The notes under the pieces are model-generated. The model was given only the letters and a program-made list of their open reading frames with translations, was not told where the DNA came from and ran no database searches. This document shows positions 6,509 through 61,485 of a DNA stretch of 64,000 nt, in pieces (within the stretch, counting starts at the first letter, position 1; every line of letters begins with the position of its first letter). Origin of the DNA: an uncultured Gammaproteobacteria bacterium. Lineage in GTDB: Bacteria > Patescibacteriota > Microgenomatia > UBA1406 > HO2-37-13b. The position numbers and the translations under genes were made by a program. The stretch spans positions 666,937 to 730,936 of the forward strand of contig OZ246401.1 in NCBI GenBank assembly GCA_965230965.1, given 5' to 3'.

Positions 6509-6509
6509 C

Positions 6510-6532
6510 AAGACCGTGTCTTATTTGATCGC
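6510..6532 (-). repeat. partial copy of the conserved motif (AAGACACGGTCTT core) spanning the sortase stop and the aclB promoter
   Basis: Minus strand reads gcgatcaaataagacacggtctt, directly abutting the TATAAT box. Confidence 0.45.
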
Positions 6533-30322: not shown

Positions 30323-30679
30323 ATGGACTCAATAAAAGACGTTTTAAAGACATTTAATCCCACATCAGACCGCTATATATCAAGAGAATATCAATCATTT
30401 GGCGTGCATCTCGCCGAGAAACTCGGCGACGAACAACATAAGAGTTTGTATATTAAATTATCCAAACAAGTGCCGCGCCCAATGTTGTTAAAAGCGTTGC
30501 AGTTTGTGGTCGATTCGGGCGCACGTAGGAAAGGAGCGCTTTTTATGTGGAAGCTCAAGGAATTAAATGCATTTCCAGAAAAAATCAGCTCAACAAAGAA
30601 GAAAAAGGCACGATCCTCAACAAGACCTGGTCTTACTGTTCCCGACGTAGTTCAGGGTTCAATTCTGGAGCAAGATTAA
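30323..30679 (+). CDS. hypothetical protein
   Basis: ORF with a TATACT box (30307-30312) 10 nt upstream of the ATG at 30323 (MDSIKDVLK). The Lys-rich C-terminal tail overlaps the convergent gene and contains a copy of the 28-nt motif. Confidence 0.45.
   Translation: MDSIKDVLKTFNPTSDRYISREYQSFGVHLAEKLGDEQHKSLYIKLSKQVPRPMLLKALQFVVDSGARRKGALFMWKLKELNAFPEKISSTKKKKARSSTRPGLTVPDVVQGSILEQD
30607..30634 (+). repeat. copy of the conserved ~28-nt motif at a convergent gene junction
   Basis: ggcacgatcctcaacaagacctggtctt, located where the 3' ends of 30323..30679 (+) and 30633..32756 (-) overlap. Confidence 0.55.
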
Positions 30680-32756
30680 GTCTACAACCCTCACCTTTGC
30701 CGAAGTTAGCCTGCGTAAAGACGAGGTCAAATCCATTGATAATACCATCGCCATTTATATCAGAGCTATTTTGATCGGTCGGTCCAATCTCTTCTGCATA
30801 TTTTGTAGCTACAACAGAGAAATCGTTTGCATTACAGCAAGAATCTTTATTAACATCACATGCGTCAATTTCAGTTACCCCTTGCCCGGTTATGCTTCCT
30901 GCTTCTGAGGCTACGATACGATAAATGACGTTCTGGCGGAGTGGGGTGGTTACCTCATTTGGACAATTCACAGGTGTTGAACTACCTTCGAATGTAGCTC
31001 GGCACTTAACGCTGTAATCATTAATACCTTGTGGCAAGACCAAATTTGTCTCAACTGTGCCTCGTTGTCTTGGCTGGATCGAGGTATTAACAAGTTCAGA
31101 TGTGCATTGTGTTTTTCCTGGACCATAACAGGTGATTGTTGTAATACTGGTCACCGCTTTTGAGGAACCATTGTAGAAGGAAATACTTGTGTAAAAACCA
31201 GCATTTGATGTGTCTGGCGTTGGTGTTGGTGAAAATCTAGGATTTGGTGTTGCTGTTGCGCGTGGGGTTAAGCTTGGTGTAGGTGGAATTGTGGTTGGTG
31301 TTGGTGACCAGATTGGTGTTGCTGTAGGTGCGGCATTTTCACAGCTTACAGCACCAGAGCTACGTACGTTTGCCTCATTTTCTGTTGTGGGATATTTTGA
31401 TTTATCAAAGGTACACACAATCACCTGACCAGCAGGGAGTGTAATTGCATTTTCTACTTCAAAGAAATTTTGAACCAGTTCTGGTGTATCAACAGGCGCA
31501 TTGACCTCACAAATTTTATCATTTTCGTCAAATGTGCCATTACAGCGACCTAACAGCCAATAGAGTTTTTCCTCAGTTGTGCCATTGTTGTGATAGGTGA
31601 CTTTAATATTGTTGCCCGCGGCGCTTGAACTACATTGTCCGCGATTACCTTCGCTATCAGAGCCTTGTTTGTTATTTGTGTCGATTGCATGTGTACACGG
31701 ATCGAGCAAAGATCGTGCTTCGCCATCCTCTTTTCCAAGTCGCAATTCATACGTTGTGACATTGGCGGTAGGGAGTTGCAACTTAAATGTTGTTGTTTTA
31801 CCTGAAGCGCCGAGATTAATACCACATACAAATGCACCAAAATCTACATAAGAAGGCGAACAATTTGTATTGTTTATTGGTTCAATACGCACTCCCGTAT
31901 TATCTGCCTTTCCATCATCACGCTTGTAGTCGTAGAAAAGCACAAGAGCTTTTGCACCTCCTGGTGTATCATTTATTGTTAAATTCACCGTCTTATTTAT
32001 TGTCGTACCTGTACCTTTGCGTGTAATATCTGTGTTTGATGTTTTGTTTCCCTGTGCGCCACACGATTCCCAGTTAATGTCTCCTTGTTCGGTAAAATCA
32101 CAGGTCATGGCGGTTGCTTGGAACTCTGTAAAGTTAGATTTCCATGTTCCCGCAAGCTGCAGATTGACCGTTATGTCGCCTGGCTGAGCTGGAGTAGGTG
32201 ATTGATTCGGATTGTTTGTTGGTTGTGGATCGTCAGGACAGAAGTAGCTGCGACTTATTTTTCCTACCTCTGCTTGTAGCTGCCATGGTGGGCCAGCTGT
32301 GTCAACACGAATATCAAGATCGCCAGCTGGTAAACATTCAGCGCCTTCTGGCAGGCGGGTTGCCGCTGGCATATTTATAGGCGCATTAAACAAGAGCATT
32401 GGATTGCCATCTTTGCAGCGAGCAGTAGCAGGGTTTGAAACTGTCTTTTGTACACTGGCGCCAATAGGAATTTCTGGCTGCAAAAGATCGTCATGATATA
32501 TCGATACTTTCCATTTTCCATTTAATGGTGGGTTGTTGGTAAAACAAAGTCCGCCAGTTAACATATAATCCCAGCGATTATGCGGAGCCAAGCTGGTAAA
32601 TTCGATAGTTACATCTTGATTTGCCACCTCGGTTAACTCAGGTGGGACTGCAGCTTCGGTTGTTCTTTGTTGAAGCTGGGGGCTTGTTACCAAGGAGACA
32701 CCAATGATAAGTCCTAGTGTCATTATTGCTAAAACGGCTAATGATAGTGTTTTCAT
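30633..32756 (-). CDS. large secreted surface protein with a C-terminal dockerin-like module
   Basis: Signal/TM anchor. Pro/Thr linker APTATPIWSPTPTTIPPTPSLTPRATATPNPRFSPTPTPD. C-terminal double Ca-loop CDVNKDSCCNANDFSVVATKY / DINGDGIINGFDLVFTQANFG. Confidence 0.75.
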   Translation of the reverse strand: MKTLSLAVLAIMTLGLIIGVSLVTSPQLQQRTTEAAVPPELTEVANQDVTIEFTSLAPHNRWDYMLTGGLCFTNNPPLNGKWKVSIYHDDLLQPEIPIGASVQKTVSNPATARCKDGNPMLLFNAPINMPAATRLPEGAECLPAGDLDIRVDTAGPPWQLQAEVGKISRSYFCPDDPQPTNNPNQSPTPAQPGDITVNLQLAGTWKSNFTEFQATAMTCDFTEQGDINWESCGAQGNKTSNTDITRKGTGTTINKTVNLTINDTPGGAKALVLFYDYKRDDGKADNTGVRIEPINNTNCSPSYVDFGAFVCGINLGASGKTTTFKLQLPTANVTTYELRLGKEDGEARSLLDPCTHAIDTNNKQGSDSEGNRGQCSSSAAGNNIKVTYHNNGTTEEKLYWLLGRCNGTFDENDKICEVNAPVDTPELVQNFFEVENAITLPAGQVIVCTFDKSKYPTTENEANVRSSGAVSCENAAPTATPIWSPTPTTIPPTPSLTPRATATPNPRFSPTPTPDTSNAGFYTSISFYNGSSKAVTSITTITCYGPGKTQCTSELVNTSIQPRQRGTVETNLVLPQGINDYSVKCRATFEGSSTPVNCPNEVTTPLRQNVIYRIVASEAGSITGQGVTEIDACDVNKDSCCNANDFSVVATKYAEEIGPTDQNSSDINGDGIINGFDLVFTQANFGKGEGCRLNLAPELNPELRREQ

Positions 32757-32759
32757 TGT

Positions 32760-33392
32760 TTAGTCGAAAATATGTAGTGTTGCTGGCTCGGTTACTTGTA
32801 AAAGATTTTTTCCATCCTGTGCTGCGATTGTGCGGTCCTTATCGAATTGGATGACCGTCTCTTGTGTCTTCTTTAAGGCACGCGCCTTAAATTTAAGAAC
32901 GATGCCCTCTTTTTTGAACGTATTTTTGCCTGGGTCGTATGCGGCTGAAAAAGTTATGGTGCCTGGTTTTTGTTCATTAAGTATGACTCGATCAAAGACA
33001 TCGCCATTTTCAACGGTGCTGACAGCTATATACGTAGGATCATAGGTCAAAACTGTATCAACAGCATATGCGGGTGCGCCACTCATAGTCACAAAGAAGG
33101 TAATCTCTTCATTTGGCTTCATAAATTTACTTTGAGGCAAGAGGGAAAGGCGCACGCCATCTGTTTTTTCGAGGGCAGCTCCTGGGGCTGCTTCATGTAG
33201 CACATTGCGCTTAAACTTTGGTGAAAAAATAACGCCAATAAGAATGCTCAAGATAAAGAGAATAATAAGTTGAATTGCGAGCAAGAACTTAACTTGAGGG
33301 CTGAGCGTAAAAAAATCCTTTACATCTTTACGCACAGTAGTAGCGACGGTGTCCATGTATCCATTATAGAGAGATTGTGAATTGTTTGTCAA
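32760..33392 (-). CDS. membrane-anchored cohesin-like domain protein
   Basis: N-terminal TM (FLLAIQLIILFILSILIGVIF), then a ~140-aa beta-sandwich pattern: VRLSLLPQS..EEITFFVTMSGAPAYAVDTVLTYDPTYIAVSTVENGDVFDRV..GTITFSAAY..IVLKFKARALK. Confidence 0.65.
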   Translation of the reverse strand: MTNNSQSLYNGYMDTVATTVRKDVKDFFTLSPQVKFLLAIQLIILFILSILIGVIFSPKFKRNVLHEAAPGAALEKTDGVRLSLLPQSKFMKPNEEITFFVTMSGAPAYAVDTVLTYDPTYIAVSTVENGDVFDRVILNEQKPGTITFSAAYDPGKNTFKKEGIVLKFKARALKKTQETVIQFDKDRTIAAQDGKNLLQVTEPATLHIFD

Positions 33393-36300
33393 TTAAAGCT
33401 CAGTTCCAAATGAGTTCATGAAGATGGAGAGGTCGAGCGCATTCACTGCGCCATCTTGATTCACATCTGTGGTCGACGCGCCTTCGGCGCCATATTCATC
33501 GTAGAGGTACTGAAGGTCGATTGTATTAATGACACCATCCTGGTTTATATCGAGATCAATAGATACTGGTTGTATTGGTCGAGCTCCATTACTCGGACAG
33601 AGTGAACCAAGACTCGATTTATCAATCACGCCAGATCTTACAGAAATATTGTAAATATAACATGTATCTCCTGTGACATTAATTTCCGCGGGCGTACACA
33701 GCTTGGTGTTTGACCCATCAAATACTACTGAACATTGAACAGAATGTTTTCCTTTTGGAACATCGTTATATAGCACGTTGTGTTCATATGTGTTTGTGCC
33801 GTGGAGTGATCCAAGTGTGAACTCACTCCCTGTGAAAAGGAAGGGAACGGGGCCTGAAAGTACTGGTTTTAGGGTAAAGGCGGTCAATCTAAATGCTTCA
33901 ATTTTATATTTTATAGTTACACGATATTTAGGTTGAACAACTTTTGTTGGTTCAGGCTGTTGAATCTTACTACAGTACCCAGTACCAGTGCGAGATTTTT
34001 GTGCGCTACAGTTATCAACACCCATCTCACGGCACTGCTTTTCAGCTTCGCCTTTGCTAGGGAAAGCAGGGGAACGCCCATTAATGCCATATTCTTTCTT
34101 CTCATTATCACATGTACCAATATTGCCCTTAATCTTACAGCAGAATCCAGATGTACCAATTTTGCTGTTAGGTGATTTCACAACCTCAACCAGATTAGAT
34201 CCATATGTGCCAGTACATCTTGCAGTTGCCTCATCTTTATTTCCAGGAACTGCTTGATCTCTATTAATACCTACACCTCGTAAACCATCTTGAGCTGAAC
34301 AACTACCTATATCAGCAGTATGTACACCGCAACAATGGCGAGATCCATCTCGTTTGCCAGTATTTTTATCGAGTGGGTGGTTGTATGACATAAATCCATT
34401 CGCACGGACACATTTATTTGCGGAAGCAGGAAATGGTCCGTAGGTTCCAACTGTACATTCGTAAGGGTCGGTTTGGCCATTACCACCGCCACCCGTCCCA
34501 CCGCCAGGACCACCAGACGTTCCAAACGAGCAACAGTATCCTCCATCAGATGCATTAACAGGTCCATTACTTCCAGGCCATACACTTTGACATACGCCAC
34601 GATCACTTTCTGAACTAACTTTTATGAATGATTCACCAACGCGGCCTTCTTGGCCGTACGAATTTGCTGGGCAGACACCTTGGCCACCGCCACCTGGATT
34701 GCCACCACCTGGGTTACCAGGATTTCCTGGATTACCGCCACCGCCTGGGCCTTCGCCACCTGGTGGTTCTGTGCCTGGAGGGCAACACCATAGATCGGTG
34801 CCGCTACAAGGTTGATCACTTGGTGGGGTTTTTGGTACATATCCACGACTTCTACAAAAGCTTTCTGGAGCACACCACTGTGGACATACACCACCGCCAC
34901 TACCTGGATCACCAGGTTCTTTAGGTTCTTCCGGATCGTCAGAATCATCGCGTGCAACGCCAGTAAAGTCGAGTGAGACAGGGTTGCTCATACAGGCACC
35001 ATCTTTATCTAAGAATGAATAAAGATACGCAGTATACTCATGGCCCTCATCATAATAATCCCTACGAACTACATTTACTTGATGTGGTGCCTCACCTGGA
35101 TTACGATCGTTTGTCTTAACGCCAGTATCTTCATCTTTCATTCCTCTTCGTGAAGCTACAATTTCTCCTGTTTCCTTATCTTTCACAATAATCCAGTATC
35201 GATCAGAACCACGCTTAAATGCTGGACAATTACCAGCAACATCCCATTCAAGATTCGCTGTTCGTTCTTTTATTTCTTTAATACGGAAGTTTCGAGGCTT
35301 ACAGCCCTCGTTTTGTGTAGCAGAAACATTGTTGTCGTCGCGCAGCGCGCATGATACAGAGCCAATGGGTGCACCACCAACAGGAGGCTCAGCAGCTGGA
35401 GGTTGTGGGGTAGGGGTTGGAGGAATCTTTTCCAATACCCAGCCATATTCCAGATTTGCATTACATGCAATACGAAGGTTTTCAAAGATTTTTGGATTGC
35501 GAAGCTTACTCATGTCTGTCTCGCTCCATGTATCTGTATAACCAGGGCACGCAGGCACACTTGAATTTTTACTTGTACATTCTTGTTTGACCACACGATA
35601 GTCGTCAGCATAGAGTTTTACTGCAGCCAAAGCATCGCGGCCCCAAGTTTTAGTTTCTCTGAAATCACCCAAGTCAGTGAGGTGGAAGTCAACACGTCCG
35701 GGATTGCTGCCAAGGTTATTGAAGGTTAGTGTTTCAATTGGCTTATCACCACGATCGAAAAGTTGTTTATTGTTGACCGTTCCATATATGCCGGGTTTAT
35801 TATCGAGTGCAGTAAGGATATTGCCACTTGTGTCTTTTACATATGAAACAGCGTCAAACGCACAGCCGCAGGTGCGATTTGCATAGACTTCAAAGTCGCG
35901 CTTGTCGCCAGGTTTTACGCGCAATTTTTCTCCTTGTTCACGCTCGGAATCAAAATAGGTAGCATCGTTATCAAAAAAACCAGCAGCACGACTTAAGAAG
36001 TATGTTTTAGAAGGATCAAGTAACTTATTGTTTTCATCTGTGCTTATTCTGTACTTATACATCCAGGTTCCATCATCATTTGTGTCGTCAAGCCAAATAC
36101 CATGATCACTCGGTCCAGGGGTGAATGGCAGCGCCACAACTTTTCCGCCATTTAATTCATCACAGGTTTCGCCTGTGCAAAAATCTACAGCTACTCGCGA
36201 AGGTTTCTTACATGCAAATACAGAAACCCGCCCAGAAATTGTTCCATCTGGTGTTGGAGTAGGGGTTAGCGTTGGTGTGACTGGAGCGTCACTTGGTGCA

Positions 36301-36974
36301 GGTGTTTCGCTCGGGCCGGGTGTTTCACTTGGTTCGGTAGGGTCTGTCGTTGGCCCGGTACCTGGCTCCAATGTTGGAGTGGGGCTCTCGGTAGGGCCAC
36401 ATACATCTTTGATTTGGTCAAGAGCAATCTTTGCAAATGGGGTTCCTGAGAACCATGTTCCTCTGTAATGTAGATATACTTCTGGACAATAACTTGCACT
36501 TAGTCGGCGTGGTGTTGTTGCAATGACAGAGAAGCGATGTGGTTGTTTTTGATTTTTATCAAGCATCTTTCCTATACCTGCAGCCCGATCCACATATTCA
36601 CAGCTTGCGGGGAAGCTTCCATTGCCGGCCACATATAGACGGCCACCATCGATATAGCTTCCATCATTTTCACCATCTAGTGCCTTGCCACGATTATCGG
36701 TAGCCCAAAGCGTCCATTCTTCTTTTCCTCCGCTTTGAAGATGGCGTGAGTAACAAATCTGACCGCTGATTTCTACATGAGTATCATCAATGCGACGTAC
36801 ATCAAGAGTATTTTCTTGCAACATGACACCTGTTGAGTTTAGGGCTGCCTGTGAAGAGGTGCCAAGATTGTTTTGAGTAATACCTATGACTGTTGCAGCA
36901 AGTGCAATAACGCTGATACCAGCAACAAGCATACCTGCAATTGAGCCTCGATTATTGAGTTTCATTGACATCAA
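33393..36974 (-). CDS. giant secreted surface protein (FN3-like module, Gly-rich spacers, Cys-rich CC-motif repeats) with a C-terminal dockerin-like module
   Basis: Signal/TM anchor, PT linker, FN3-like PRNFRIKEIKERTANLEWDV...YTAYLYSF, GGEGPGGGGNPGNPGNPGGGNPGGGGQG, repeated ...CC motifs, and C-terminal DINQDGVINTIDLQYLYDEYG / DVNQDGAVNALDLSIFMNSFG. Confidence 0.75.
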   Translation of the reverse strand: MMSMKLNNRGSIAGMLVAGISVIALAATVIGITQNNLGTSSQAALNSTGVMLQENTLDVRRIDDTHVEISGQICYSRHLQSGGKEEWTLWATDNRGKALDGENDGSYIDGGRLYVAGNGSFPASCEYVDRAAGIGKMLDKNQKQPHRFSVIATTPRRLSASYCPEVYLHYRGTWFSGTPFAKIALDQIKDVCGPTESPTPTLEPGTGPTTDPTEPSETPGPSETPAPSDAPVTPTLTPTPTPDGTISGRVSVFACKKPSRVAVDFCTGETCDELNGGKVVALPFTPGPSDHGIWLDDTNDDGTWMYKYRISTDENNKLLDPSKTYFLSRAAGFFDNDATYFDSEREQGEKLRVKPGDKRDFEVYANRTCGCAFDAVSYVKDTSGNILTALDNKPGIYGTVNNKQLFDRGDKPIETLTFNNLGSNPGRVDFHLTDLGDFRETKTWGRDALAAVKLYADDYRVVKQECTSKNSSVPACPGYTDTWSETDMSKLRNPKIFENLRIACNANLEYGWVLEKIPPTPTPQPPAAEPPVGGAPIGSVSCALRDDNNVSATQNEGCKPRNFRIKEIKERTANLEWDVAGNCPAFKRGSDRYWIIVKDKETGEIVASRRGMKDEDTGVKTNDRNPGEAPHQVNVVRRDYYDEGHEYTAYLYSFLDKDGACMSNPVSLDFTGVARDDSDDPEEPKEPGDPGSGGGVCPQWCAPESFCRSRGYVPKTPPSDQPCSGTDLWCCPPGTEPPGGEGPGGGGNPGNPGNPGGGNPGGGGQGVCPANSYGQEGRVGESFIKVSSESDRGVCQSVWPGSNGPVNASDGGYCCSFGTSGGPGGGTGGGGNGQTDPYECTVGTYGPFPASANKCVRANGFMSYNHPLDKNTGKRDGSRHCCGVHTADIGSCSAQDGLRGVGINRDQAVPGNKDEATARCTGTYGSNLVEVVKSPNSKIGTSGFCCKIKGNIGTCDNEKKEYGINGRSPAFPSKGEAEKQCREMGVDNCSAQKSRTGTGYCSKIQQPEPTKVVQPKYRVTIKYKIEAFRLTAFTLKPVLSGPVPFLFTGSEFTLGSLHGTNTYEHNVLYNDVPKGKHSVQCSVVFDGSNTKLCTPAEINVTGDTCYIYNISVRSGVIDKSSLGSLCPSNGARPIQPVSIDLDINQDGVINTIDLQYLYDEYGAEGASTTDVNQDGAVNALDLSIFMNSFGTEL

Positions 36975-38682: not shown

Positions 38683-38688
38683 ACGATC

Positions 38689-38717
38689 ATTCTAGTTAAG
38701 AATAGAGGAGATTACAA
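38689..38717 (-). promoter_or_regulatory. internal promoter TTGTAA-17-TAGAAT, with the -10 box 6 nt upstream of the ATG at 38682
   Basis: Minus strand reads cTTGTAAtctcctctattcttaacTAGAATgatcgtATG. The -35 box overlaps the stop of the upstream gene. Confidence 0.45.
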
Positions 38718-39506
38718 GAGAGAAATCTGACTGGTGAGCAAGGTGTAATCGAGCGCATTTACTTTATTGTCATTATTTAGGTCGCCCATAAGCCCCGGAC
38801 CTTGTTCGCCATACGTATCTAAGACGATAAATAGATCAAATGTATTGCAGGCGTTGTCATGATTGAGATCACATGTAGTTGTCAACGCCGAATCTGTACG
38901 TGCGGCTGGGTCGGCTTGTTTGCCAGCTCGTCTTTCAACGACCCAGCCTGCCTTTAATGTCATATTACAATCCATTGATATATTTTTTACTGTGTCCAAA
39001 TCAATAGTCTCAGTCACATCATCTTGAAGCGTTGCATTATTGCAGAGGTGTGGGTGGGTGGGTGAGGAGCATGTGTTAATTTCCTGCTTCACTATAGCAA
39101 ATAGATCGCTTTGGTAATTTAATTTTAACGATGTGCTTTCACCCTTTCGATACACATCAATACTTCTTGGTAAAGAACTAAATGTAAGTGCATCAGCAGT
39201 ATGTAAGTATTCCATACGCGGCAATTCATTAAAATACAAAGGCTGCGCATTTGGTCTCACGCCATCAATGACGTTCCACGCTAGGATGTTAATATCTGGA
39301 TATTTTTCAATTGAAAGTGGAATTTCTTGGCCGACCTCATCCTTTTCATATACATATATTTCAGCATTGATAGGGCAATACACAGGTTTGTATTCTTGTG
39401 CACTTGAAAAAAGAGCAAAGGGGCGATCGGTTTGTAGGGTAAGTACGCCGATGATAATCCCAAAGGTGAGAAAAAGAATACTCGAAACAAACGTTATTGC
39501 CTTCAT
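38712..39506 (-). CDS. secreted protein with a C-terminal dockerin-like module
   Basis: Signal/TM anchor. C-terminal CDLNHDNACNTFDLFIVLDTYG / DLNNDNKVNALDYTLLTSQ. Confidence 0.7.
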   Translation of the reverse strand: MKAITFVSSILFLTFGIIIGVLTLQTDRPFALFSSAQEYKPVYCPINAEIYVYEKDEVGQEIPLSIEKYPDINILAWNVIDGVRPNAQPLYFNELPRMEYLHTADALTFSSLPRSIDVYRKGESTSLKLNYQSDLFAIVKQEINTCSSPTHPHLCNNATLQDDVTETIDLDTVKNISMDCNMTLKAGWVVERRAGKQADPAARTDSALTTTCDLNHDNACNTFDLFIVLDTYGEQGPGLMGDLNNDNKVNALDYTLLTSQISLL

Positions 39507-42055
39507 TGTGATTCAAGCTCTGGACTCACTACTGTACCCAGATCACCAATCATGAGGGAGACATCGAGCGAGTTGATGACACCATCGTCATTAAGATCTC
39601 CAGGAAGTTCTGTGCCTTGCTGGAAGTAAGCGTCATAGAGATTGAAGAGGTCGACAGTATTAATAATGCCATCGTCATTCATATCTTTTGCCCGCATAAA
39701 CGCTGTGTGCAATGCTTCTGTTTGAGCACAAGAGTTAAGACTTTGTTGGACACGGCCGAAGATCTCGCTTATTGACACATTTGCTGCGGTAGAGAATGCC
39801 CATGTGTCATCTGAGGCGACGACTTTAATAACTCTGAGAAGTTCGGCATTTACAAGTTCACCTGGAACAGGGTTGTTTGCGGCATTAGGATCACCATAGC
39901 CGATACCAATGACTGTTGGTGGTACGTTGCCTGTTGCAGCAGTATTCATCGCTTTGAGCTTATCAGCCTCAGTCTTGATTTCAGCCTCGTAGCCCCCAGC
40001 TCGTGGATTGCCTGGGTCACTGTTTGGAAGACCATCGGATAAGAATACAACAACCACTCTTCGAGATTTATCTGTACGGAAGTTGGTGAGAAGATTCATG
40101 GTTTCACGAAGTCCACATTCAATACAAGTCCCTTCTTCGTATGTAAGACTGTTTGTTGCATCATTCTTTACGGTATCTATATTGTTAGTGAGTGGGGTAA
40201 CAATACGTGTATTTCTACGGCTACTAAACTGGATGAGCGCAGCTCGATGATCGCCACCACTATTTTTGATATTTGTAAGGAAGTCTTGAAGTTCTTTCAT
40301 TGCGGCATCCTTCTTAAGTTCGCCACCACGATCGCGTGTTTTGATCATTGACGTTGATGTATCCATGACGAATATGTAGTCAAAGTCTGCATTACATTTT
40401 TGAACAGTCCAACCGTAAACAATATTTTGGCCACATCCGACGGTAAGGCCTGTGACTGTATCGCGAGGATCGCGCTTGGTCAGATCAACACTATTGTCAA
40501 TTCTATTTGCCTGGAATGCTGGAAGATTACATGCTCCAACAGTGTTTCCCTTTATATTGTTTTTACAAAACTTGATTTCATTACCTTCAGGCACAATGCG
40601 ATAATCTGGTCGTTTAAGTGTAAGGCGTATTGATGCGTCCTCCATATTTGCGTAGCGCTCATTTGGATAGGTGAAAGTGGGTGGTATAAACATCCCGTTA
40701 CCCGATGCAACTGGATTCACTCCAGCTGGAACAGGCTGCGTGAGATCTGCTCTGAAGTATGAGAGTTGTGAGCCGAGTATGCCGCCACCGTAATAAGGAT
40801 AGTTTTTAATAATGTCGGCGGCCTCAATTGGATTACCAGTGAATAGATTAAAGCGAGAAGCTGGTCCTTGACCATAACGACCACCAGCGAGTTGCTTATT
40901 ATTTATAGTGCCAAAGTTTGTAAGCTCAGCCGTCGAAAGAGCACGAGCCATAAAATTACCTCTCGCGTCACGTACGCATTGTCCCTGAGCATTAAATTGT
41001 GTACATTCTTGCACATAAACAAGTGCGCTAAAGCTGCATGATGTTGCAGTAATTGGCGTTGGTGTTACGCTTGGCGTGCCAGACAGCGGTGTACTTGGCG
41101 TCGCTGTCGGTGGGCATGTTGGGCCTCCACACGATGGCGTCGGAGTAATGCTCGGTGGTGGGCAAGTTGGGCCTCCACACGATGGTGTTGGTGTAGGTGA
41201 TTTCAATATAATCGTCACAAATATATTTGTAGGTGTTGGACTTTTTGTAGGTGTGGGGGTTGGTGACTTTACTACTATAGTTATAAGCCAATTTGTAGGC
41301 GTAGGTGTTACGGATGGTGTGCCTGATAAAGGTCCTGTCGGCGTTACGCTAGGTGTGCCCGAGAGCGAACCTGTTGGCGTAACTGTTGTTTCAGGGCCAC
41401 AGCCCTTTTTGCCTTTAGCAATTTGTGAATAACGTCGAGTGACACCAGCTGTTTTTGCATCAAATTCAAAATAGAATAACGCGTCTTCACCACCTGTTAA
41501 CCAGCTTGGACGATCATACACAAAGTATTTATGATCGCTTGGTCCTTGACGAACACTCAAGAGAATTTGACCTTTTTTAATATCATACCCTGTTGCTTTG
41601 CGTATATTTGCTTTTTGAGCATCGGTATAATCGATGCGTGGATCCCAGTTAACCGAAATGCCATATGCACGATTACTACACGCGCCAGTAATGGATTTGC
41701 CGATTGGTGTGCCATTTGGATTTCCACGACCGGTAACATCAACACCTAAATCAAGTTTTTGTGAGCCATCTAAAGAGCGAATCTCAAGTTTCTGTATGAG
41801 AGGGTCTGAATTACAGGTAAATTCAGCTGCACATATCATTCCTTGTGAACCATCAAACCATCGACCACCGGTATAACCAAGATCAATAGGTGTGGGGGCA
41901 TCAACAGCGAATGGGGTAGTAGATATGGGTCGTGATGCTTGATTAATCTGTGTTCCTATAACGATGCCTGCTGTAATAACCAGCATCGATACAATAGTTA
42001 ATAACGAGGCGACTTCACCTCGTTGGTGTCGATTTTTTCTCTTAAATATGTTCAT
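39503..42055 (-). CDS. vWA-domain surface protein with a TadE/G-like N-terminal hydrophobic segment and a C-terminal dockerin-like module
   Basis: N-terminus KRKNRHQRGEVASLLTIVSMLVITAGIVIG. vWA MIDAS DYIFVMDTSTSM ... GTCIECGL ... VVVFLSDGLPN. Repetitive PT/Cys linker. C-terminal DMNDDGIINTVDLFNLYDAYF / DLNDDGVINSLDVSLMIGDLG. Confidence 0.8.
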   Translation of the reverse strand: MNIFKRKNRHQRGEVASLLTIVSMLVITAGIVIGTQINQASRPISTTPFAVDAPTPIDLGYTGGRWFDGSQGMICAAEFTCNSDPLIQKLEIRSLDGSQKLDLGVDVTGRGNPNGTPIGKSITGACSNRAYGISVNWDPRIDYTDAQKANIRKATGYDIKKGQILLSVRQGPSDHKYFVYDRPSWLTGGEDALFYFEFDAKTAGVTRRYSQIAKGKKGCGPETTVTPTGSLSGTPSVTPTGPLSGTPSVTPTPTNWLITIVVKSPTPTPTKSPTPTNIFVTIILKSPTPTPSCGGPTCPPPSITPTPSCGGPTCPPTATPSTPLSGTPSVTPTPITATSCSFSALVYVQECTQFNAQGQCVRDARGNFMARALSTAELTNFGTINNKQLAGGRYGQGPASRFNLFTGNPIEAADIIKNYPYYGGGILGSQLSYFRADLTQPVPAGVNPVASGNGMFIPPTFTYPNERYANMEDASIRLTLKRPDYRIVPEGNEIKFCKNNIKGNTVGACNLPAFQANRIDNSVDLTKRDPRDTVTGLTVGCGQNIVYGWTVQKCNADFDYIFVMDTSTSMIKTRDRGGELKKDAAMKELQDFLTNIKNSGGDHRAALIQFSSRRNTRIVTPLTNNIDTVKNDATNSLTYEEGTCIECGLRETMNLLTNFRTDKSRRVVVVFLSDGLPNSDPGNPRAGGYEAEIKTEADKLKAMNTAATGNVPPTVIGIGYGDPNAANNPVPGELVNAELLRVIKVVASDDTWAFSTAANVSISEIFGRVQQSLNSCAQTEALHTAFMRAKDMNDDGIINTVDLFNLYDAYFQQGTELPGDLNDDGVINSLDVSLMIGDLGTVVSPELESQ

Positions 42056-42076
42056 TTGTCTTTAATCCTTTATATA

Positions 42077-42622
42077 TTATCGAACGGTAATAGTAACTGG
42101 TTCAGCTGTACCAAGTGTATTGGTGCCAGTATGAGCAGTAATAGTTAGATCTTTATTAAAATCTATTGTAGCCGTTCCAGAATCCATTGCGGTTACGGTA
42201 AAGGTGAAAAGAGTGCCTGCTTTTAGATCTGTTGGATTATTGGGATCCACAGCAGAGGAGACGATAAGCTGATTATCTTTTATTTCACTACGTAGAATGT
42301 CAGGAAACACGGTGCCATTGACAATGTCTGAGGCCTTCAGAAGCTTTGCATCAAATGTCAAAACAACGTCAGCTGCTTGTGAAGGGGCACCTGTGAGTTC
42401 AACAGCAACTTGCGTACTTTCACCCTTGTTCAAACTTGTGACTTGAGGCTTTAATACAAGCTGTGTGGTACCTAATTGATTCTCTGTTTTGGAACCAGTC
42501 ATTCCAGATTTGCCTTTTTGGGCAAAGAGAAGCCCCATAATCAAACTAACAGCAAAGACAAAAAAGATGATGCCGATAAGTGCAATATTTTTATTAGGTT
42601 GAAGGGTTTTAGATTGATCCAT
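42077..42622 (-). CDS. membrane-anchored cohesin-like domain protein
   Basis: TM helix [21 protein letters not shown], then [77 protein letters not shown] at 42622 (MDQ...) preferred because the ATG at 42631 lies inside the -10 box and the paralogue starts MDN. Confidence 0.65.
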
Positions 42623-42629
42623 GAGAATC

Positions 42630-42659
42630 ATTGTACGGGTTATAAAAGTTGTTTGTCAA
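42630..42659 (-). promoter_or_regulatory. promoter TTGACA-18-TACAAT, with the -10 box 7 nt upstream of the ATG at 42622
   Basis: Minus strand reads cTTGACAaacaacttttataacccgTACAATgattctcATG. Confidence 0.5.
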
Positions 42660-42673
42660 GAGAAAATAAGAGG

Positions 42674-45600
42674 TTAATTGAAGACATCACCAATTACTTT
42701 TTGAGCAGTGTTATTTTCTTGTGGGACTACTTTGCCCATACTGTTGACGATGATTGATACGTCGAGTGAGTTGACGATTTGATCATTGTTCAAATCTTCT
42801 GGAACATCTTGACCTCGTGCAAAGTAATTATCGTAGATAAGGAAGAGGTCAATTGTATTAATAACACCGTCACCATTAATATCTTGTGAGCTGACGAAGT
42901 TTGCATACAAGGCATCCGAGCGAGCACAAGAGTTCAGGCTGACTTCAATGCTATTGTAAATTTCCTCAATACTGACCTCACTTGTTGTAGAGAAGGCGAG
43001 GTCGGGCGTGCTCGTGAAATGCTGAATAACACGAAGTATCTCGGCATCAGCATTCACGCCTGTTTTTGTTGGATCGCCAACGCCTATGCCATACACTGTT
43101 GTATTAGGTATGGCTTTTATTTCTGTTCCAAGTTTTATGATTACATCTTCAGAGCCTGGATTTGGATTTCCTTCAGGACAATTTGGCATACCGTCTGTTA
43201 AGAATACGACATGTGTTTTTCTCGCTGTACCATTTCTTTTCAATAAAGAGATGGTTTCACGCAAACCGTCTTCAATACAGGTGCCTGATTGATAGCGAAG
43301 CTTTGTATCAACAGCTCCGAGGACAGAATCAATATTGGTAGTAAGATCTTGTACTGTTGCTGTATTTGCTGTTGAACTAAATTGTACTAATGCTGCGCGG
43401 CTATCTTTTCCGTAAGTCTTGATGTTTGTTAAGAAGGTGCGCAATGCCTTCTTTGCTGCATCGATTTTCAGTTGTCCTGATGCATCTTTTCCTGTTGTCA
43501 TCGAGGACGAAGTATCAATGACAAATATATAATCGGCTGGCGCGGTATTACATTTCTGCAATGTCCAGCCGTAGACAATATTCTGACCGCATCCAACAGT
43601 TAGGCCATCGATGGTATCCCGTGGATCTCGTGAGGCAGGGTCAACAGTGTTATCAAAGCGTGAAGATTGGAATGATGCAAGATTACAAGCGCCTATCGCT
43701 GTACCCATAAGCGCATTATTACAGTAGGCAATTTCATTTCCATCTGGAACGACTCTATATTCTTTATTGCCAAAGTTAGCATACAGGCGTACACTTGCAT
43801 TTTCACGATTAAAGTATTGTTCGTTTGGATATTGATGCACAGGTGCAATAAGAATTGGATTCTTAGCACGTCCTTCTGGTGTTAAGTCGGCTGCTGAGCC
43901 TGGCTCTAAAGGATTTTTCCCTGCTGGGATAGGCACACTTGCCTGATAATCTAAGAATGACATTTCACTAAATTGGAGCGTACTAAGATAAGGGAAGCGT
44001 ACTTTAAGACCATCAAAAGCCCCTACAAAAGTATTAGTTTGATACTGGAATGGTGTTGCTGGGTTTGTACCATAGCGACCACCAGCAATCTGCTTATTGT
44101 TACTTGCGCCCCAACCATTAAGCACGTTTGCTTGAATAGCTTTTGCCTGAAAGCGGCCGTTCCCAGCACGCTTACATTGTCCAGTTGCATCAATCTCTAA
44201 ACACTCTTGGACATAGGCAAGTGCATCGAAGCTACATGCTTGTGGTGTACCAGTTGTCGTTGTTATCGTAGGTGGTGGGGGGGTTACTGTTTTTGCTGGT
44301 GTTATTGAGACTAATGGATTCGTTGGTGTTGGAGAAACCTTCACATTTGGACATGCAAGATCTGGACTTTCACAAGAACCTGGGTTTGCCTGACATCGCT
44401 GTGGTAGACATAGACAGTCAACATCACCATTTTGACAGATTGATAATACATTATTAGCCCCATCAGTATTTTTTGCGGTTGTTGGGAAAGTAGGTGGAAG
44501 AATATTGAACCCATCAACATTTAAACATAGCATACGTTTGCCTGTAGCTGGATCAACATCACATTTTGTAATAGGTGTACATCGTTGATAACACTGTGCG
44601 ACTGGTGGTGTTACGGATGGTGTGCCTGACAATGGTCCTGTTGGTGTTGGACTTACTAATGGCGTGACAGTCACAGGTACCGAAGGTGTTGGGCTTCCAC
44701 CTTGACCTGTTGTTGGTGTCGGTGTGACATTTGGGTTACAAAGGTCTTTTGCCTCATCTTCGCCCAATACATCACGTAAATTTATCTTGAATATATTATA
44801 TGTGTCCTTTGGCTTAGCTTTATCACCAGCTGTTATATTGTCGCGGAGGTGGATATAGACTTCACATGCTTCCTCGTCGAATTTTTGGTGGATTGTTGGA
44901 TCCTGCTTTGCTCGCTCAATTGCACTCTTTATACTTGCTTTTGCGGCTTGAATATTAAAGAGAAGAGGATTATCTGTTTTTCTGTAATCTGTTGCGTCAA
45001 CTTTTCCATTGGTAAACGTACAAACCTCATCACGAGCTCTCGCAACAAACAACTCATCAGTATTATTTGAAGCAGCTTTATCTTCTGCAGCTGCGATTTT
45101 ATAACGAAGGACATCGTTGATATCATTTTCTTCAATACCAACCTGACCCTTGTCATCATAAAACTTTCGAACTCCAAAGAGACTGATATAAACCTCGACG
45201 TCTTCTGTTGAGAGTCGACCATTGCCTGCAACTGAGCTTCGGTTAAGACAAAGTCCTCCGTATATTTGTAATGTCCGCTGATCTTTTGCTGTTACAGCGA
45301 CAATAAGTGGGTTTTGTTTTGACTGTTCTGTGCCTTGAAAGATTTGATTAAAAATTTGTTTTGCGCGTGCATCCGCGGTTTTAATGATGTCGCGTGTTAA
45401 AAGAGCAGGGTACATTCGTGTACGACAATACTTATCGCGCACTTGTTGGTTCTTATCACCACCAGGGAAACAAACCTGGTCATGTCTGTCAACACCTTCA
45501 GCTGGAATCGGGGATGTTGTTGTTGGGCCGGCAGCTTGTGGAGCGGGATTAATTGTTGCTGAATTTCTGTTGATCTGATATCCGACGAGAAGGCCAATGG

Positions 45601-45679
45601 AAAGAACAACCATTGACACAATGGTTAAAAGTGAGGCTACTTCACCTCGTTGTCTTTGCGAACGCTCAAAATATCTCAT
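42674..45679 (-). CDS. vWA-domain surface protein with a TadE/G-like N-terminal hydrophobic segment and a C-terminal dockerin-like module (paralogue of 39503..42055)
   Basis: N-terminus RSQRQRGEVASLLTIVSMVVLSIGLLVG. vWA DYIFVIDTSSSM ... GTCIEDGL ... HVVFLTDGMPN. C-terminal DINGDGVINTIDLFLIYDNYF / DLNNDQIVNSLDVSIIVNSMG. Confidence 0.8.
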   Translation of the reverse strand: MRYFERSQRQRGEVASLLTIVSMVVLSIGLLVGYQINRNSATINPAPQAAGPTTTSPIPAEGVDRHDQVCFPGGDKNQQVRDKYCRTRMYPALLTRDIIKTADARAKQIFNQIFQGTEQSKQNPLIVAVTAKDQRTLQIYGGLCLNRSSVAGNGRLSTEDVEVYISLFGVRKFYDDKGQVGIEENDINDVLRYKIAAAEDKAASNNTDELFVARARDEVCTFTNGKVDATDYRKTDNPLLFNIQAAKASIKSAIERAKQDPTIHQKFDEEACEVYIHLRDNITAGDKAKPKDTYNIFKINLRDVLGEDEAKDLCNPNVTPTPTTGQGGSPTPSVPVTVTPLVSPTPTGPLSGTPSVTPPVAQCYQRCTPITKCDVDPATGKRMLCLNVDGFNILPPTFPTTAKNTDGANNVLSICQNGDVDCLCLPQRCQANPGSCESPDLACPNVKVSPTPTNPLVSITPAKTVTPPPPTITTTTGTPQACSFDALAYVQECLEIDATGQCKRAGNGRFQAKAIQANVLNGWGASNNKQIAGGRYGTNPATPFQYQTNTFVGAFDGLKVRFPYLSTLQFSEMSFLDYQASVPIPAGKNPLEPGSAADLTPEGRAKNPILIAPVHQYPNEQYFNRENASVRLYANFGNKEYRVVPDGNEIAYCNNALMGTAIGACNLASFQSSRFDNTVDPASRDPRDTIDGLTVGCGQNIVYGWTLQKCNTAPADYIFVIDTSSSMTTGKDASGQLKIDAAKKALRTFLTNIKTYGKDSRAALVQFSSTANTATVQDLTTNIDSVLGAVDTKLRYQSGTCIEDGLRETISLLKRNGTARKTHVVFLTDGMPNCPEGNPNPGSEDVIIKLGTEIKAIPNTTVYGIGVGDPTKTGVNADAEILRVIQHFTSTPDLAFSTTSEVSIEEIYNSIEVSLNSCARSDALYANFVSSQDINGDGVINTIDLFLIYDNYFARGQDVPEDLNNDQIVNSLDVSIIVNSMGKVVPQENNTAQKVIGDVFN

Positions 45680-46251
45680 TATTTAACAGTAATAGTTACG
45701 GGTTCCGTCATACCTAACGTATTGACACCGTTTGTTGCTGTGATGGTAAGATCTTTATCAAAATTTAATGCCGCTGAACCAACACCCACACCTTTAAGCG
45801 TGAAGGAAAAAAGGGTTCCAGTTTTAACATCCGCTGGATTATTTGGATCTACAGCTGCAGAAACAATAACTTGGTTGTTAACTACCTCGCTACGAAGAAT
45901 GTCAGGAAAGACATCACCATTTGTAATGTCAGAGATAGCAACAAGTTTTGGATCAAATGTTATGACAACATCAACTGCTTGGGCACCTGTATCGTTCACA
46001 TTAACGCTAACTTTTGTTGCAGCTCCTTTTGCGATTGATGGTGATTCAGGAACAATGCTCAGCTGTGACATGCCTTTATTCGTATCCTTTATCACATCAC
46101 TTGGGGCTTTACGGAGCCCACTTTGACCAGCAAAATAAAGACCCGCACCAATGCTTAATGCAAAAATGACAGCAATAATCGAAAGGGCTTTGAGTTTTTT
46201 TTGAGGGTGAAGCGTATGAAATTCTTGAATATCATCCTGTACATTGTCCAT
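45679..46251 (-). CDS. membrane-anchored cohesin-like domain protein (paralogue of 42077..42622)
   Basis: TM helix ALSIIAVIFALSIGAGLYF, then [58 protein letters not shown]. The first base of its stop codon (45679) is also the A of the downstream gene's ATG. Confidence 0.65.
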   Translation of the reverse strand: MDNVQDDIQEFHTLHPQKKLKALSIIAVIFALSIGAGLYFAGQSGLRKAPSDVIKDTNKGMSQLSIVPESPSIAKGAATKVSVNVNDTGAQAVDVVITFDPKLVAISDITNGDVFPDILRSEVVNNQVIVSAAVDPNNPADVKTGTLFSFTLKGVGVGSAALNFDKDLTITATNGVNTLGMTEPVTITVK

Positions 46252-46257
46252 CCCATC

Positions 46258-46287
46258 ATTCTACGGCCTGGGAAAATGCTTTGTCAA
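46258..46287 (-). promoter_or_regulatory. promoter TTGACA-18-TAGAAT, with the -10 box 6 nt upstream of the ATG at 46251
   Basis: Minus strand reads cccTTGACAaagcattttcccaggccgTAGAATgatgggATG. Confidence 0.55.
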
Positions 46288-46320
46288 GGGTTTTTTTGAA
46301 CAATTTTACAAGTCCGGGGC

Positions 46321-46857
46321 TCAGTATTCAGGAAATTCATTGAGATCATTAAGTAATACGCAGCCATCCTGATTTATATCAAGTGCGGGATTATAGTCTG
46401 TATCACCTTTGCATGCACCATACACATCGTTTGAATAGGCTGAAGCATCTATACCAAATGTTTTACTTAATGGGCTCGCAGGTACAAAAACCTCAATAGG
46501 TTCCTGATCACCACTATATATATAACAATAATAAGGTGTATTGGCATTCAGGGTCACATTAAATTTTTGTGTATTAATAAGGTGTTGTGTGGAAGGCTCG
46601 CCGTCTTCGCCGGCGAAAAATTTAACACCTGTGCGCGATAGCGCACATTGAAGACTTGTTGCGACAGATGTTGATGTTTGATAGGTAATTTCTGCAGCAA
46701 CATTTGAGATACGCACGGCTTTTGCATTCAGAATTTCTGTATTACCTGATGCCTTTGAACGTAATTGAGTTGTGTAATATACACCGCCAAAAATGAGCGG
46801 CAATAAAATCAGGGATGCAATGATCAAAAGCGTGCGTGGATTCATATTGTGCATCAT
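46321..46857 (-). CDS. membrane-anchored beta-rich protein with a single dockerin/EF-hand-like Ca-loop
   Basis: N-terminal TM. FN3-like segment ...HLINTQKFNVTLNANTPYYCYIYSGDQEPIEVFVPAS. C-terminal DINQDGCVLLNDLNEF. Confidence 0.55.
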   Translation of the reverse strand: MMHNMNPRTLLIIASLILLPLIFGGVYYTTQLRSKASGNTEILNAKAVRISNVAAEITYQTSTSVATSLQCALSRTGVKFFAGEDGEPSTQHLINTQKFNVTLNANTPYYCYIYSGDQEPIEVFVPASPLSKTFGIDASAYSNDVYGACKGDTDYNPALDINQDGCVLLNDLNEFPEY

Positions 46858-47648
46858 AGCAAAATCTTTATCAAAATGCTTAATAACGTTAGGCCAACTC
46901 CTATTGCGATTGCCAACGTTGTTGGCTCAATATTGCCCGTCTCAGGAAGTGTTGAAGGGGTGGGGCCTGTCGTGGGGGTGGGGGAAATAGCAAGAGTCGG
47001 CGTCAGGCTTATTGCTAATGTTGGAGTCGCCGACGCAATTTTTGGTGTCACCGAAGGTGTTAGAGATTTACTCAGTGTAGGTTTTGGGGTGCCGCTCAAT
47101 CCTGATGTTGGCGCAGGATTGCTGCCTGTACCGCTCACCGTTATTTTTGTGCTTGTGGCTTTGCTACAATCTATTATGTCAGTTACGCGCTGATTTCTTT
47201 TGAGCGTTATGTTTGAGTCAGTAGTTTTTCCGTCTTCGCATTGCACACTTGCCAATGTTTCGCCATCGGCTATGCCCTGAAATACTATTGTCGCGATCAA
47301 TCCATCGCCCGATTGCGGTGTTCCTTGAGGAAGAATTGCAGACCCCACAAAAACTTTATTGGCCTTATTATTCAAGAAAAAGCGGGGAAAGAATTTTTCA
47401 CTTTGTTCAGGTTCTTTTACTTCTACCACTTTTAATTTTGCAGGATCATATACAACAATAGCATCAGTCGTTGTTGGTTTTTCACCTTCAGTATTAATAC
47501 GAATATTAACCTCAAGTTTTGTATTGTCTGTCACAGAGCCCGAAGTTGGATCGAGATAGATGTACGCGGCGTTAATAGATGTTGCACTAAAAAGAAAAAT
47601 AACCAAGCAAAAAGCTAATGCATATACAAATAATTTATATGACCCCAT
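46854..47648 (-). CDS. sortase-anchored cohesin-like scaffold protein (LPETG)
   Basis: Signal peptide. Cohesin-like IYLDPTSGSVTDNTKLEVNIRINTEGEKPTTTDAIVVYDPAKLKVVEV..GLIATIVFQGIADG. PT linker. LPETG at 46935..46949 followed by a hydrophobic helix and a K-containing tail. ATG at 47648 preferred over the TTG at 47666. Confidence 0.75.
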   Translation of the reverse strand: MGSYKLFVYALAFCLVIFLFSATSINAAYIYLDPTSGSVTDNTKLEVNIRINTEGEKPTTTDAIVVYDPAKLKVVEVKEPEQSEKFFPRFFLNNKANKVFVGSAILPQGTPQSGDGLIATIVFQGIADGETLASVQCEDGKTTDSNITLKRNQRVTDIIDCSKATSTKITVSGTGSNPAPTSGLSGTPKPTLSKSLTPSVTPKIASATPTLAISLTPTLAISPTPTTGPTPSTLPETGNIEPTTLAIAIGVGLTLLSILIKILL

Positions 47649-47655
47649 ATGTAGG

Positions 47656-47684
47656 ATGGTACACAATAGGTAGAGAATTCACAA
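47656..47684 (-). promoter_or_regulatory. promoter TTGTGA-17-TACCAT, with the -10 box 7 nt upstream of the ATG at 47648
   Basis: Minus strand reads aTTGTGAattctctacctattgtgTACCATcctacatATG. It is back-to-back with the plus-strand promoter at 47691. Confidence 0.4.
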
Positions 47685-57438: not shown

Positions 57439-57444
57439 CGAATA

Positions 57445-61483: not shown

Positions 61484-61485
61484 GT

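Follow-up and report, generated by a model that had tools for sequence, protein, structure and literature searches.

Sortase anchoring of a single cohesin has a precedent in Ruminococcus flavefaciens, in which ScaE binds the X-dockerin (XDoc) modules of both ScaB and the adhesin CttA. This ScaE tier is the closest known system to the one considered here, a set of cohesin and dockerin genes on a 64,000-nucleotide stretch of the genome of an uncultured bacterium (contig OZ246401.1, positions 666,937 to 730,936; hereafter the window, whose own numbering is used throughout). Both ScaE and the window combine a single-cohesin anchor bearing an LPXTG motif with a sortase, and at least one ScaE cargo is an adhesin, as is predicted for cargo of the window. 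Unlike the window system, however, ScaE supports a whole cellulosome, hierarchical and multi-cohesin, which degrades fibre and abounds in glycoside hydrolases (GH), carbohydrate esterases (CE), polysaccharide lyases (PL) and carbohydrate-binding modules (CBM), whereas the window has no scaffoldin or adaptor, most of its anchors are membrane helices and it contains no recognisable carbohydrate-active enzyme (CAZyme). Many dockerin proteins of R. flavefaciens carry non-catalytic or unknown modules, such as leucine-rich repeat, transglutaminase-like and serpin modules and 155 unknown domains (PMC2930009). The clostridial cellulosome, with CipA, OlpB, SdbA and Orf2p of Acetivibrio/Clostridium thermocellum, shares with the window the cohesin (PF00963) and dockerin (PF00404) families and their duplicated Ca loops, and the best PDB matches of the window dockerins and cohesins are cellulosomal (2y3n_B, 4fl4_A, 5lxv_A and 4ums_A). 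Of the features of that system, the window lacks the nine-cohesin scaffoldin, CBM3, S-layer homology anchoring, the type-II XDoc tier and GH cargo. The window system therefore falls outside the definition of a cellulosome, because it has no multi-cohesin scaffoldin, CAZyme cargo or CBM.

Cohesins and dockerins also occur outside cellulosomes, for example in Archaeoglobus fulgidus and in the toxin complexes of Clostridium perfringens. The survey of Peer et al. 2009 reportedly found such non-cellulosomal modules in all domains of life. Like those of the window, they lie outside plant-fibre degradation and are often single copies in hypothetical or surface proteins. To our knowledge, none of the non-cellulosomal cases takes the form of conserved cassettes of a membrane cohesin with von Willebrand factor A (VWA) or beta-rich cargo, nor does any come from the Candidate Phyla Radiation (CPR). 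A second likeness is with the VWA tip adhesins SpaC, RrgA and PitA and the type V tip protein Mfa5, which, as in the window, combine a VWA domain bearing a metal ion-dependent adhesion site (MIDAS) with an Ig-like stalk and a C-terminal tether. Those adhesins depend on covalent sortase polymerisation or anchoring and on isopeptide bonds, whereas in the window the predicted tether is a non-covalent dockerin and only a cohesin anchor is a predicted sortase substrate. Within the CPR, cohesin and dockerin proteins of a metagenome-assembled genome (MAG) of Ca. Shapirobacterales (Microgenomates) were seen in a metaproteome and read as a cellulosome (bioRxiv 10.1101/2021.08.21.457207), and in Saccharibacteria the dockerin-domain protein SEML1_0315 is essential (PMC10633639). 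These two reports resemble the present case in dealing with cohesin or dockerin surface proteins, there expressed or essential, but they offer domain annotations only, read as cellulosome or glycan targeting, with no analysis of anchors, cargo or cassettes. An earlier reading of the window made from its letters alone (the sequence-only reading) had supposed this use of the assembly principle to be undescribed; that holds in part only, given the CPR cohesin and dockerin proteins of the two papers just cited. Full-text literature searches returned no description of the organisation set out below. The proteins of the system are themselves already public, as hypothetical proteins.

The reading favoured here, with moderate confidence, is that of a non-cellulosomal cohesin–dockerin system that displays adhesin-type proteins on the cell surface. 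Its simple one-socket anchors and mostly non-enzymatic cargo are an unusual, though not unprecedented, use of known parts. The main block occupies 30633..47666 on the minus strand and holds 11 open reading frames (ORFs), tightly packed, with junctions that range from a 23-nt overlap to a 69-nt gap; the unidirectional 17-kb block first proposed was thus recovered with all 11 ORFs. Pfam gathering scores were 24.1 bits for Cohesin (PF00963) and 22.9 bits for Dockerin_1 (PF00404), and a census of the whole window with local hidden Markov models (HMMs) gave seven single-cohesin proteins and ten dockerin proteins, agreeing with an earlier count of about seven cohesins and correcting one of about eleven dockerins. 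No ORF in the window joins a cohesin to a dockerin, by local HMMs or by Pfam, nor does any protein of five related loci, so there is no adaptor scaffoldin, and no multi-cohesin scaffoldin was found in the window or in five related loci, where every cohesin protein has one cohesin. The hierarchy of scaffold, adaptor and cargo that had been envisaged is not supported, and neither is the framing of the system as an attack organelle.

Four cohesin proteins serve as predicted anchors in the block. Three are membrane proteins (45679..46251, 42077..42622 and 32760..33356, all on the minus strand) with a short, presumably cytoplasmic N-terminus, one transmembrane helix, 17-21 linker residues and the cohesin; in the first, the helix covers residues 22-40 and the linker is about 19 residues long, and the second is 51% identical to it. 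None of the membrane anchors, the first included, has a Cys residue (0, vs 6-42 in the cargo). All membrane cohesins share a juxtamembrane motif, TL-x-P-[QN]-x-K, in the part presumed to be cytoplasmic; L14 and P16 are invariant in 18 sequences. The fourth anchor (46854..47648, minus strand) is a predicted wall protein with a signal peptide, one cohesin and a Pro/Thr-rich (PT) linker of about 65 residues, followed by LPETG (residue 240 when counted on the longer form of the ORF) and a hydrophobic tail; to judge from the sequence, the length of the linker would be suited to spanning the wall.

The assignment of these proteins as cohesins draws on several lines of comparison. Three cohesins of the window pass the Pfam threshold, namely 32760-33392 in the block (38.4 bits) and 60851-61483 (39.6) and 61486-62142 (45.1) outside it, and the remaining four score 13.6-21.3 bits or have no Pfam match. 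The three membrane cohesins of the block are mutually homologous (BLASTP 1e-23 to 1e-58), most homologues of 32760-33356 are proteins of about 193-213 residues that carry PF00963, and the LPETG protein matches the 45.1-bit cohesin 61486-62142 at 3e-16. When the profile of the membrane cohesins was aligned with that of the other four by hhalign, the probability was 96.4% (E 1.3e-9), and searches of PDB sequences with either profile were topped by cellulosomal cohesin structures only. The sub-threshold block proteins are thus taken as cohesins because they are homologous to cohesins that pass Pfam, and all four cohesin-like proteins noticed at the outset stand, one by Pfam and the rest through BLASTP and hhalign.

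The presumed anchoring enzyme of the two LPxTG cohesins (the LPETG protein and an LPRTG protein at 61486-62142) is a sortase encoded at 6521..7237 on the minus strand, with 78.6 bits to Pfam Sortase and 49.9 bits to NCBIfam TIGR01076 against a cutoff of 39.35; no NCBIfam class model assigned it to a sortase class. The tails after LPETG and LPRTG run to about 25-30 residues, first a few polar ones and then a largely hydrophobic part, with 1-2 basic residues. Downstream of the LPETG-cohesin gene, and overlapping its stop by 4 nt, lies a gene for a small protein (46321..46857, minus strand) whose N-terminus includes a hydrophobic segment and whose C-terminus has a motif resembling a single Ca loop (DINQDGCVLLND). 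The loop had been spotted from the letters and is indeed present, as a match to a loose pattern only; as a dockerin protein the candidate was rejected, having no Pfam match and drawing a blank with the local dockerin HMM. The gene at the matching position in the related locus L006 has a faint Dockerin_1 match.

The block appears to be organised by its promoters. All three membrane-cohesin genes are preceded by TTGACA-N18-TA[TCG]AAT ending 5-7 nt before the ATG: TTGACA-N18-TAGAAT at 46249..46287, 6 nt before ATG 46251 (cassette 2); TTGACA-N18-TACAAT at 42620..42659, 7 nt before ATG 42622 (cassette 3); and TTGACA-N18-TATAAT, a 12/12 match, at 33354..33392, 5 nt before ATG 33356 (cassette 4), all on the minus strand. 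The pattern TTGACA-N16-18-TANAAT-N5-9-ATG occurs four times in the 64 kb, vs 0.03 matches expected, and three of the four belong to the membrane-cohesin genes. The LPETG-cohesin gene has a weak promoter-like site 7 nt before ATG 47648. The geometry recurs upstream of cohesin genes in OLB23 and the related loci L001, L006 and L008, and that of the cassette 2 promoter is conserved in L001, L005/L009 and L008. Promoters so near the ATG imply leaderless or nearly leaderless transcripts. Leaderless mRNAs may well be common in the genome as a whole, as near-perfect TTGACA-N17/18-TATAAT sites were also seen at 51116-51154 (minus strand) and at 47691-47719 and 48428-48457 (plus strand), about 5-11 nt before starts. 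The automatic starts at 33392 (TTG), 42631 and 47719 fall inside promoters and are probably wrong. Because its promoter spans 33354-33392, the cohesin listed at first as 32760..33392 must be taken to start at ATG 33356, the thirteenth codon (M13) of the ORF that begins with TTG; the product of that longer ORF, 32760-33392, had no match in an exact-sequence look-up.

The promoters therefore split the block into cassettes, each with one anchor and then its cargo. With the six large cargo proteins lettered A (30633-32756), B (33393-36974), C (36952-38682), D (38712-39506), E (39503-42055) and F (42674-45679), the cassettes read, in order of transcription, LPETG cohesin and 46321-46857; cohesin 45679 and F; cohesin 42077 and E, D, C and B; and cohesin 32760 and A. 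The first two membrane cassettes are duplicates, as shown by the 51% identity of their cohesins and the 43% identity of their VWA cargo.

That the large proteins of the block end in dockerins was fully borne out, since all six pass Dockerin_1 at the C-terminus, with 25.9 bits for A, 31.5 for B, 30.2 for C and 28.7 each for D, E and F. Over the window, eight dockerins pass Pfam (25.9-35.2 bits), and two more, in an RHS protein (19.0 bits) and in 56860-57438 (18.3 bits), are sub-threshold but homologous. An alignment of the ten shows two segments of Ca loop plus helix, of the D-x-N-x-D-G-x-I-N-x-x-D type, some of them degenerate. Generic EF-hand loops had been named as a finding that would undo the proposal, and this candidate was ruled out: Pfam EF-hand families scored far under their thresholds on the window dockerin proteins, and the profile of the B family, run against PDB sequences, ranked solved dockerins (up to 30 bits; 4fl4_A, 2y3n_B) above calmodulins (at most 19). 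The dockerins fall into classes by their residues at positions that we take to be the specificity-setting positions of cellulosomal type I dockerins, with T[VI]/SL in E and F, T[IAF]/AL in B, C and D, and AN/GF in A. These classes follow the cassette layout and are kept, by cassette position, in the closest orthologous loci. Gene order and dockerin class together suggest that pairing between cohesins and dockerins is probably cassette-specific.

The cargo (all on the minus strand) is a mosaic of recurring modules, labelled here N, X1 and X2, with a further pre-dockerin module. Cargo F (42674..45679) has a hydrophobic N-terminal signal, an alpha/beta N-domain, PT linkers, a Cys-rich segment, X2, a VWA domain and the dockerin; cargo E (39503..42055), its paralogue with 43% identity over about 700 residues, has X2, VWA and dockerin. 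Cargo D (38712..39506) is minimal, with a signal, X2 and dockerin. Cargo C (36952..38682) consists of a signal peptide, an N beta-sandwich, a PT linker, the beta modules X1 and X2 and the dockerin. In cargo B (33393..36974), a signal, an N module, a PT linker, X1 and X2 are followed by more beta or Cys-rich repeats (42 Cys), the pre-dockerin module and the dockerin. Cargo A (30633..32756) has a signal, an N module, unassigned Cys-rich beta modules, a PT linker and the pre-dockerin module, and its dockerin is divergent, loop 1 containing CC. N is thus common to A and C, X1 with X2 to B and C, and the pre-dockerin module to A and B, while X2 is present also in D, E and F. The N-terminus of cargo C is an ordinary Sec signal ending AYG|Q. 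In the VWA-dockerin homologues (P0028-P0036 among the relatives), the N-terminus QRGE.A..LT.VSM...G is invariant at about 30% overall identity, and other cargo families also show [KR]-x-G ahead of some 21 hydrophobic residues, a class-III-like arrangement without Glu at +5.

The Pfam scan of the dockerin proteins for enzyme and CBM families listed matches at E<=1, and in cargo A-F the only match besides the dockerin was VWA, in E and F. Among the Pfam VWA families considered (PF00092, PF13519), the VWA_2 scores of this pair, 45.3 and 59.5 bits (the latter F), pass the threshold; the MIDAS motif, DxSxS...T...D, is intact in both (DTSTS in E, DTSSS in F), and T800 and D829 are invariant across the VWA cargo family. 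Foldseek matched the VWA region of F to ANTXR2 and to the VWA domains of the adhesins SpaC, PitA, Mfa5 and LapA, with a probability of 1.00 to VWA adhesins, and the profile of the F-family VWA found mussel PTMP1, collagen VI, LapA, Mfa5 and Streptococcus sanguinis PilB (7b7p) in the PDB. AlphaFold2 modelled cargo C as an all-beta string of beta-sandwiches ending in the dockerin helices (mean pLDDT 69; within the domains, the majority of 10-residue blocks lie at 70-89). Its Foldseek matches were only generic Ig-like multidomain proteins, Gram-positive pilins and ester-bond adhesin domains, with no enzyme fold and no specific family, at query-normalised TM-scores of about 0.09-0.14. When cargo A, B and F were compared with the PDB by sequence and by profile, only dockerin, VWA and EF-hand matches came up, with no enzyme or CBM. 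The cargo had been described as VWA domains, FN3-like and beta-rich modules and an RHS shell; the VWA_2 and RHS_repeat matches bear out the VWA domains and the RHS repeats, and the beta-rich modules stand, but Pfam does not confirm FN3-like modules.

X2, a module with four conserved Cys and one Trp, is uncommon (89 clusters in a set of 1.84 billion protein representatives) and closely tied to this system. Among the 56 members scanned, 43 have Dockerin_1, 16 VWA, three a pectate lyase, one a peptidase M28 and one a peptidase M64. The possibility that X2 and the dockerin form an X-dockerin dyad was considered and rejected: the two are adjacent in C and D, but elsewhere they are separated by VWA (E and F), by a PL1 domain (the related protein P0024, described below) or by more than 600 residues (B).

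Membrane-cohesin homologues number 17 in 5.8 billion clustered proteins, among them proteins of Microgenomates bacterium OLB23 and Ca. Roizmanbacteria. With a narrower cohesin alignment as query, 185,579 species genomes were scanned and yielded five loci, from OLB23, Ca. Roizmanbacteria, Ca. Woesebacteria and two MAGs, a lower bound that takes in close relatives only. The five share the order membrane cohesin, VWA-dockerin, more dockerins, second membrane cohesin, one dockerin, then 7TM_transglut and ATP-grasp genes. This synteny shows the system to be conserved across a Microgenomates clade, and with OLB23 placed in the Patescibacteria group and both the closest homologues and the syntenic loci in OLB23, Ca. 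Roizmanbacteria and Ca. Woesebacteria, the earlier guess of a CPR organism was right. Among 22 cargo ORFs of four related loci, 18 have Dockerin_1, five VWA and one a pectate lyase. Two of the loci, L008 (CAZTFB010000003.1) and L010 (CAZKVU010000001.1), are titled 'uncultured Gammaproteobacteria bacterium' and yet are syntenic with OLB23, Roizmanbacteria and Woesebacteria, a conflict that makes these titles probably wrong. In the Roizmanbacteria cluster (L002/L003/L004/L012, 2838-3527), an IS200-like Y1 transposase gene with a weak Y1_Tnp match lies inside the cluster. Genes for 7TM_transglut and two to three ATP-grasp proteins lie directly downstream of the last dockerin gene, at 27293-30274 (minus strand) in the window and in L002, L005, L006 and L008-L012; the ATP-grasp proteins are of the RimK/ATPgrasp_ST type, one with a RimB-like Zn-protease domain. 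A functional link to them was set aside, as two housekeeping genes further downstream, Pept_tRNA_hydro and AP_endonuc_2, are also conserved nearby in all related loci, so that the linkage may be plain synteny.

In the proposed mechanism, the C-terminal dockerins would bind the membrane and wall cohesins after Sec export, in a Ca-dependent manner, and the cargo would therefore be tethered by its C-terminus with its N-terminal modules pointing outward. Such tethering would be like that of sortase-anchored Gram-positive adhesins, but non-covalent. The VWA MIDAS and the beta modules may then mediate metal-dependent adhesion to a partner cell, a matrix or a polymer, and the extra pectate lyase or peptidase of some relatives may act on the surface so bound.

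A number of observations weigh against this reading. Within the block, the Pfam Cohesin scores of two membrane anchors (20.9 and 13.6 bits) and of the LPETG protein (21.3 bits) are sub-threshold, and the assignment of cohesins to dockerins comes from gene order and dockerin sequence classes. The LPXTG tails have no basic cluster of the usual kind and go unmatched by the NCBIfam LPXTG-anchor model, so that the earlier claim of two LPxTG substrates and a sortase holds for the LPETG and LPRTG motifs and the enzyme but not at the level of that model. The cargo signals are predictions, and if they were retained as N-terminal anchors the topology would differ. The AlphaFold2 model of cargo F has a mean pLDDT of 51 and is confident in the VWA region alone, and unassigned parts, such as the N-domain, the X2 module of F and the Cys-rich repeats, make up a large share of A, B and F. 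With so much of these proteins unassigned and the F model poor, hidden catalytic or carbohydrate-binding modules are possible. Finally, P0024 (924 aa, MAG CAZKVU010000001.1), the positional orthologue of cargo C, keeps the N, X1 and X2 chassis, with a PL1 domain (pectate lyase, 106 bits) inserted after X2 and ahead of the dockerin.

This last protein is also an argument for a minimal but conventional cellulosome-like degrader, which is considered unlikely. In it, novel CBMs or enzymes would account for the beta modules, and plant, algal or extracellular polymers would be degraded for nutrition. The published metaproteomics of Microgenomates cohesins and dockerins, presented as a cellulosome, goes in the same direction, as do the pectate lyases in three of the 56 X2-family proteins and the amount of unannotated cargo. 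Against such a degrader, none of the ten window dockerin proteins had a GH, CE, PL or CBM match at E<=1 in the Pfam scan, as the sequence-only reading had noted by eye, nor had any other scanned window ORF; in the related loci a CAZyme is found in only one of 22 cargo ORFs. There is, in addition, neither a multi-cohesin scaffoldin nor a CBM3-like targeting module, the best-characterised cargo domain is an adhesin-type VWA, and cargo C is modelled as a series of Ig-like stalk modules. Because of the PL1 domain in P0024 and the single CAZyme among 22 cargo ORFs, the cargo set is best described as mostly non-catalytic yet able to carry enzymes. As a property of the system as a whole, the absence of enzymes had been overstated, given P0024 and the co-occurrence of X2 with pectate lyase and peptidases.

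Improbable, too, is the view that the two kinds of module do not pair at all, the dockerin-like repeats being Ca-binding stabilising tails or tails that bind the wall or S-layer, the cohesin-fold proteins being unrelated to them, and their co-location reflecting shared envelope regulation. Against it stands the tight alternation of cohesin and dockerin genes in five genomes, with stops and starts overlapping or adjacent, together with the tandem duplication of a membrane cohesin and VWA-dockerin pair, the presence of a dockerin in 43 of the 56 proteins of a family as rare as X2, and the way in which dockerin classes track cassette position. In its favour are the weak cohesin scores of several anchors. 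Dockerins outside cellulosomes often occur without cohesins, which was counted on the same side. Very doubtful is a third view, in which the cargo would be carried on a type-IV-pilus-like fibre, with [KR]-x-G and about 21 hydrophobic residues (as in QRG|EVASLLTIVSM) acting as a class-III signal for a prepilin peptidase and the dockerin serving assembly, since the invariant QRGE.A..LT.VSM of the F-family at about 30% overall identity, the similar G-plus-hydrophobic N-termini of the A, B and C families and the match of the VWA profile to S. sanguinis PilB (7b7p), a modular type IV pilin, are set against the lack of the prepilin motif G|FTLIE, of any Pfam N_methyl or NCBIfam prepilin (TIGR02532-type) match and of Glu at +5, the ordinary Sec signal of cargo C (AYG|Q) and the absence of adjacent pilus genes among the scanned window ORFs.

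Beyond the main block, a second cluster on the plus strand (56860..62142) encodes the dockerin proteins 56860-57438, 57445-58266 and 58229-60034, the membrane cohesins 60031-60861 and 60851-61483, and the LPRTG cohesin 61486-62142. Between the two clusters lies a region (51475-53645, minus strand) encoding a subtilase S8 (198 bits) with a fervidolysin-like prodomain, which is repeated in a small ORF just upstream; the region carries no dockerin. An RHS/YD-repeat protein (15703..20745, plus strand; Pfam RHS_repeat 42.8 bits, YD_repeat_2x 43.8) has an N-terminal hydrophobic segment and a dockerin at residues 66-123, with BLASTP matches to other dockerins down to 1e-7. No DPxG[LWFIM] motif was found in it, and its C-terminus has no recognised toxin family. 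Downstream of it are genes for three secreted paralogues (20714-22237, 22222-23493 and 23483-24688, plus strand), 38-54% identical over the N-terminal 125-155 residues and in no Pfam family. Beside the sortase gene lies an ATP-citrate-lyase-like gene pair on the minus strand, at 3540-5318 and 5315-6511 (Citrate_bind, 186 bits, plus ATP-grasp; CoA-ligase plus Citrate_synt), and 2167-3009 encodes a 2-oxoacid:ferredoxin oxidoreductase beta subunit; the pair and the oxidoreductase are unusual central-carbon equipment for a Microgenomates genome.

The role of the system can be imagined further, though only tentatively. The locus may be a lineage-specific rack of cassettes, each with a leaderless membrane-cohesin gene under a strong promoter ahead of its cognate dockerin cargo, and with modules (VWA, X1/X2, N, now and then a lyase or peptidase, RHS shell) shuffled from one cassette to another. 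Its exchangeable, non-covalently held adhesins and effectors might set the host or substrate specificity of an ultrasmall episymbiont, and it would then amount to a host-attachment organelle that works on the cellulosome principle.

For those who mine metagenomes, the locus is a caution that the co-occurrence of cohesins and dockerins does not always mean a cellulosome, and hence is not always evidence of cellulose degradation. It provides a concrete, conserved and testable alternative, in which a few monovalent membrane and wall cohesin anchors serve a family of dockerin-tagged VWA and Ig-like proteins. The cassettes also offer natural candidate cognate pairs for studies of cohesin–dockerin specificity and for orthogonal protein-assembly toolkits. 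With this Microgenomates system, the range of cohesin–dockerin architectures now takes in transmembrane single-cohesin anchors, set out in promoter-defined cassettes of anchor and cargo.

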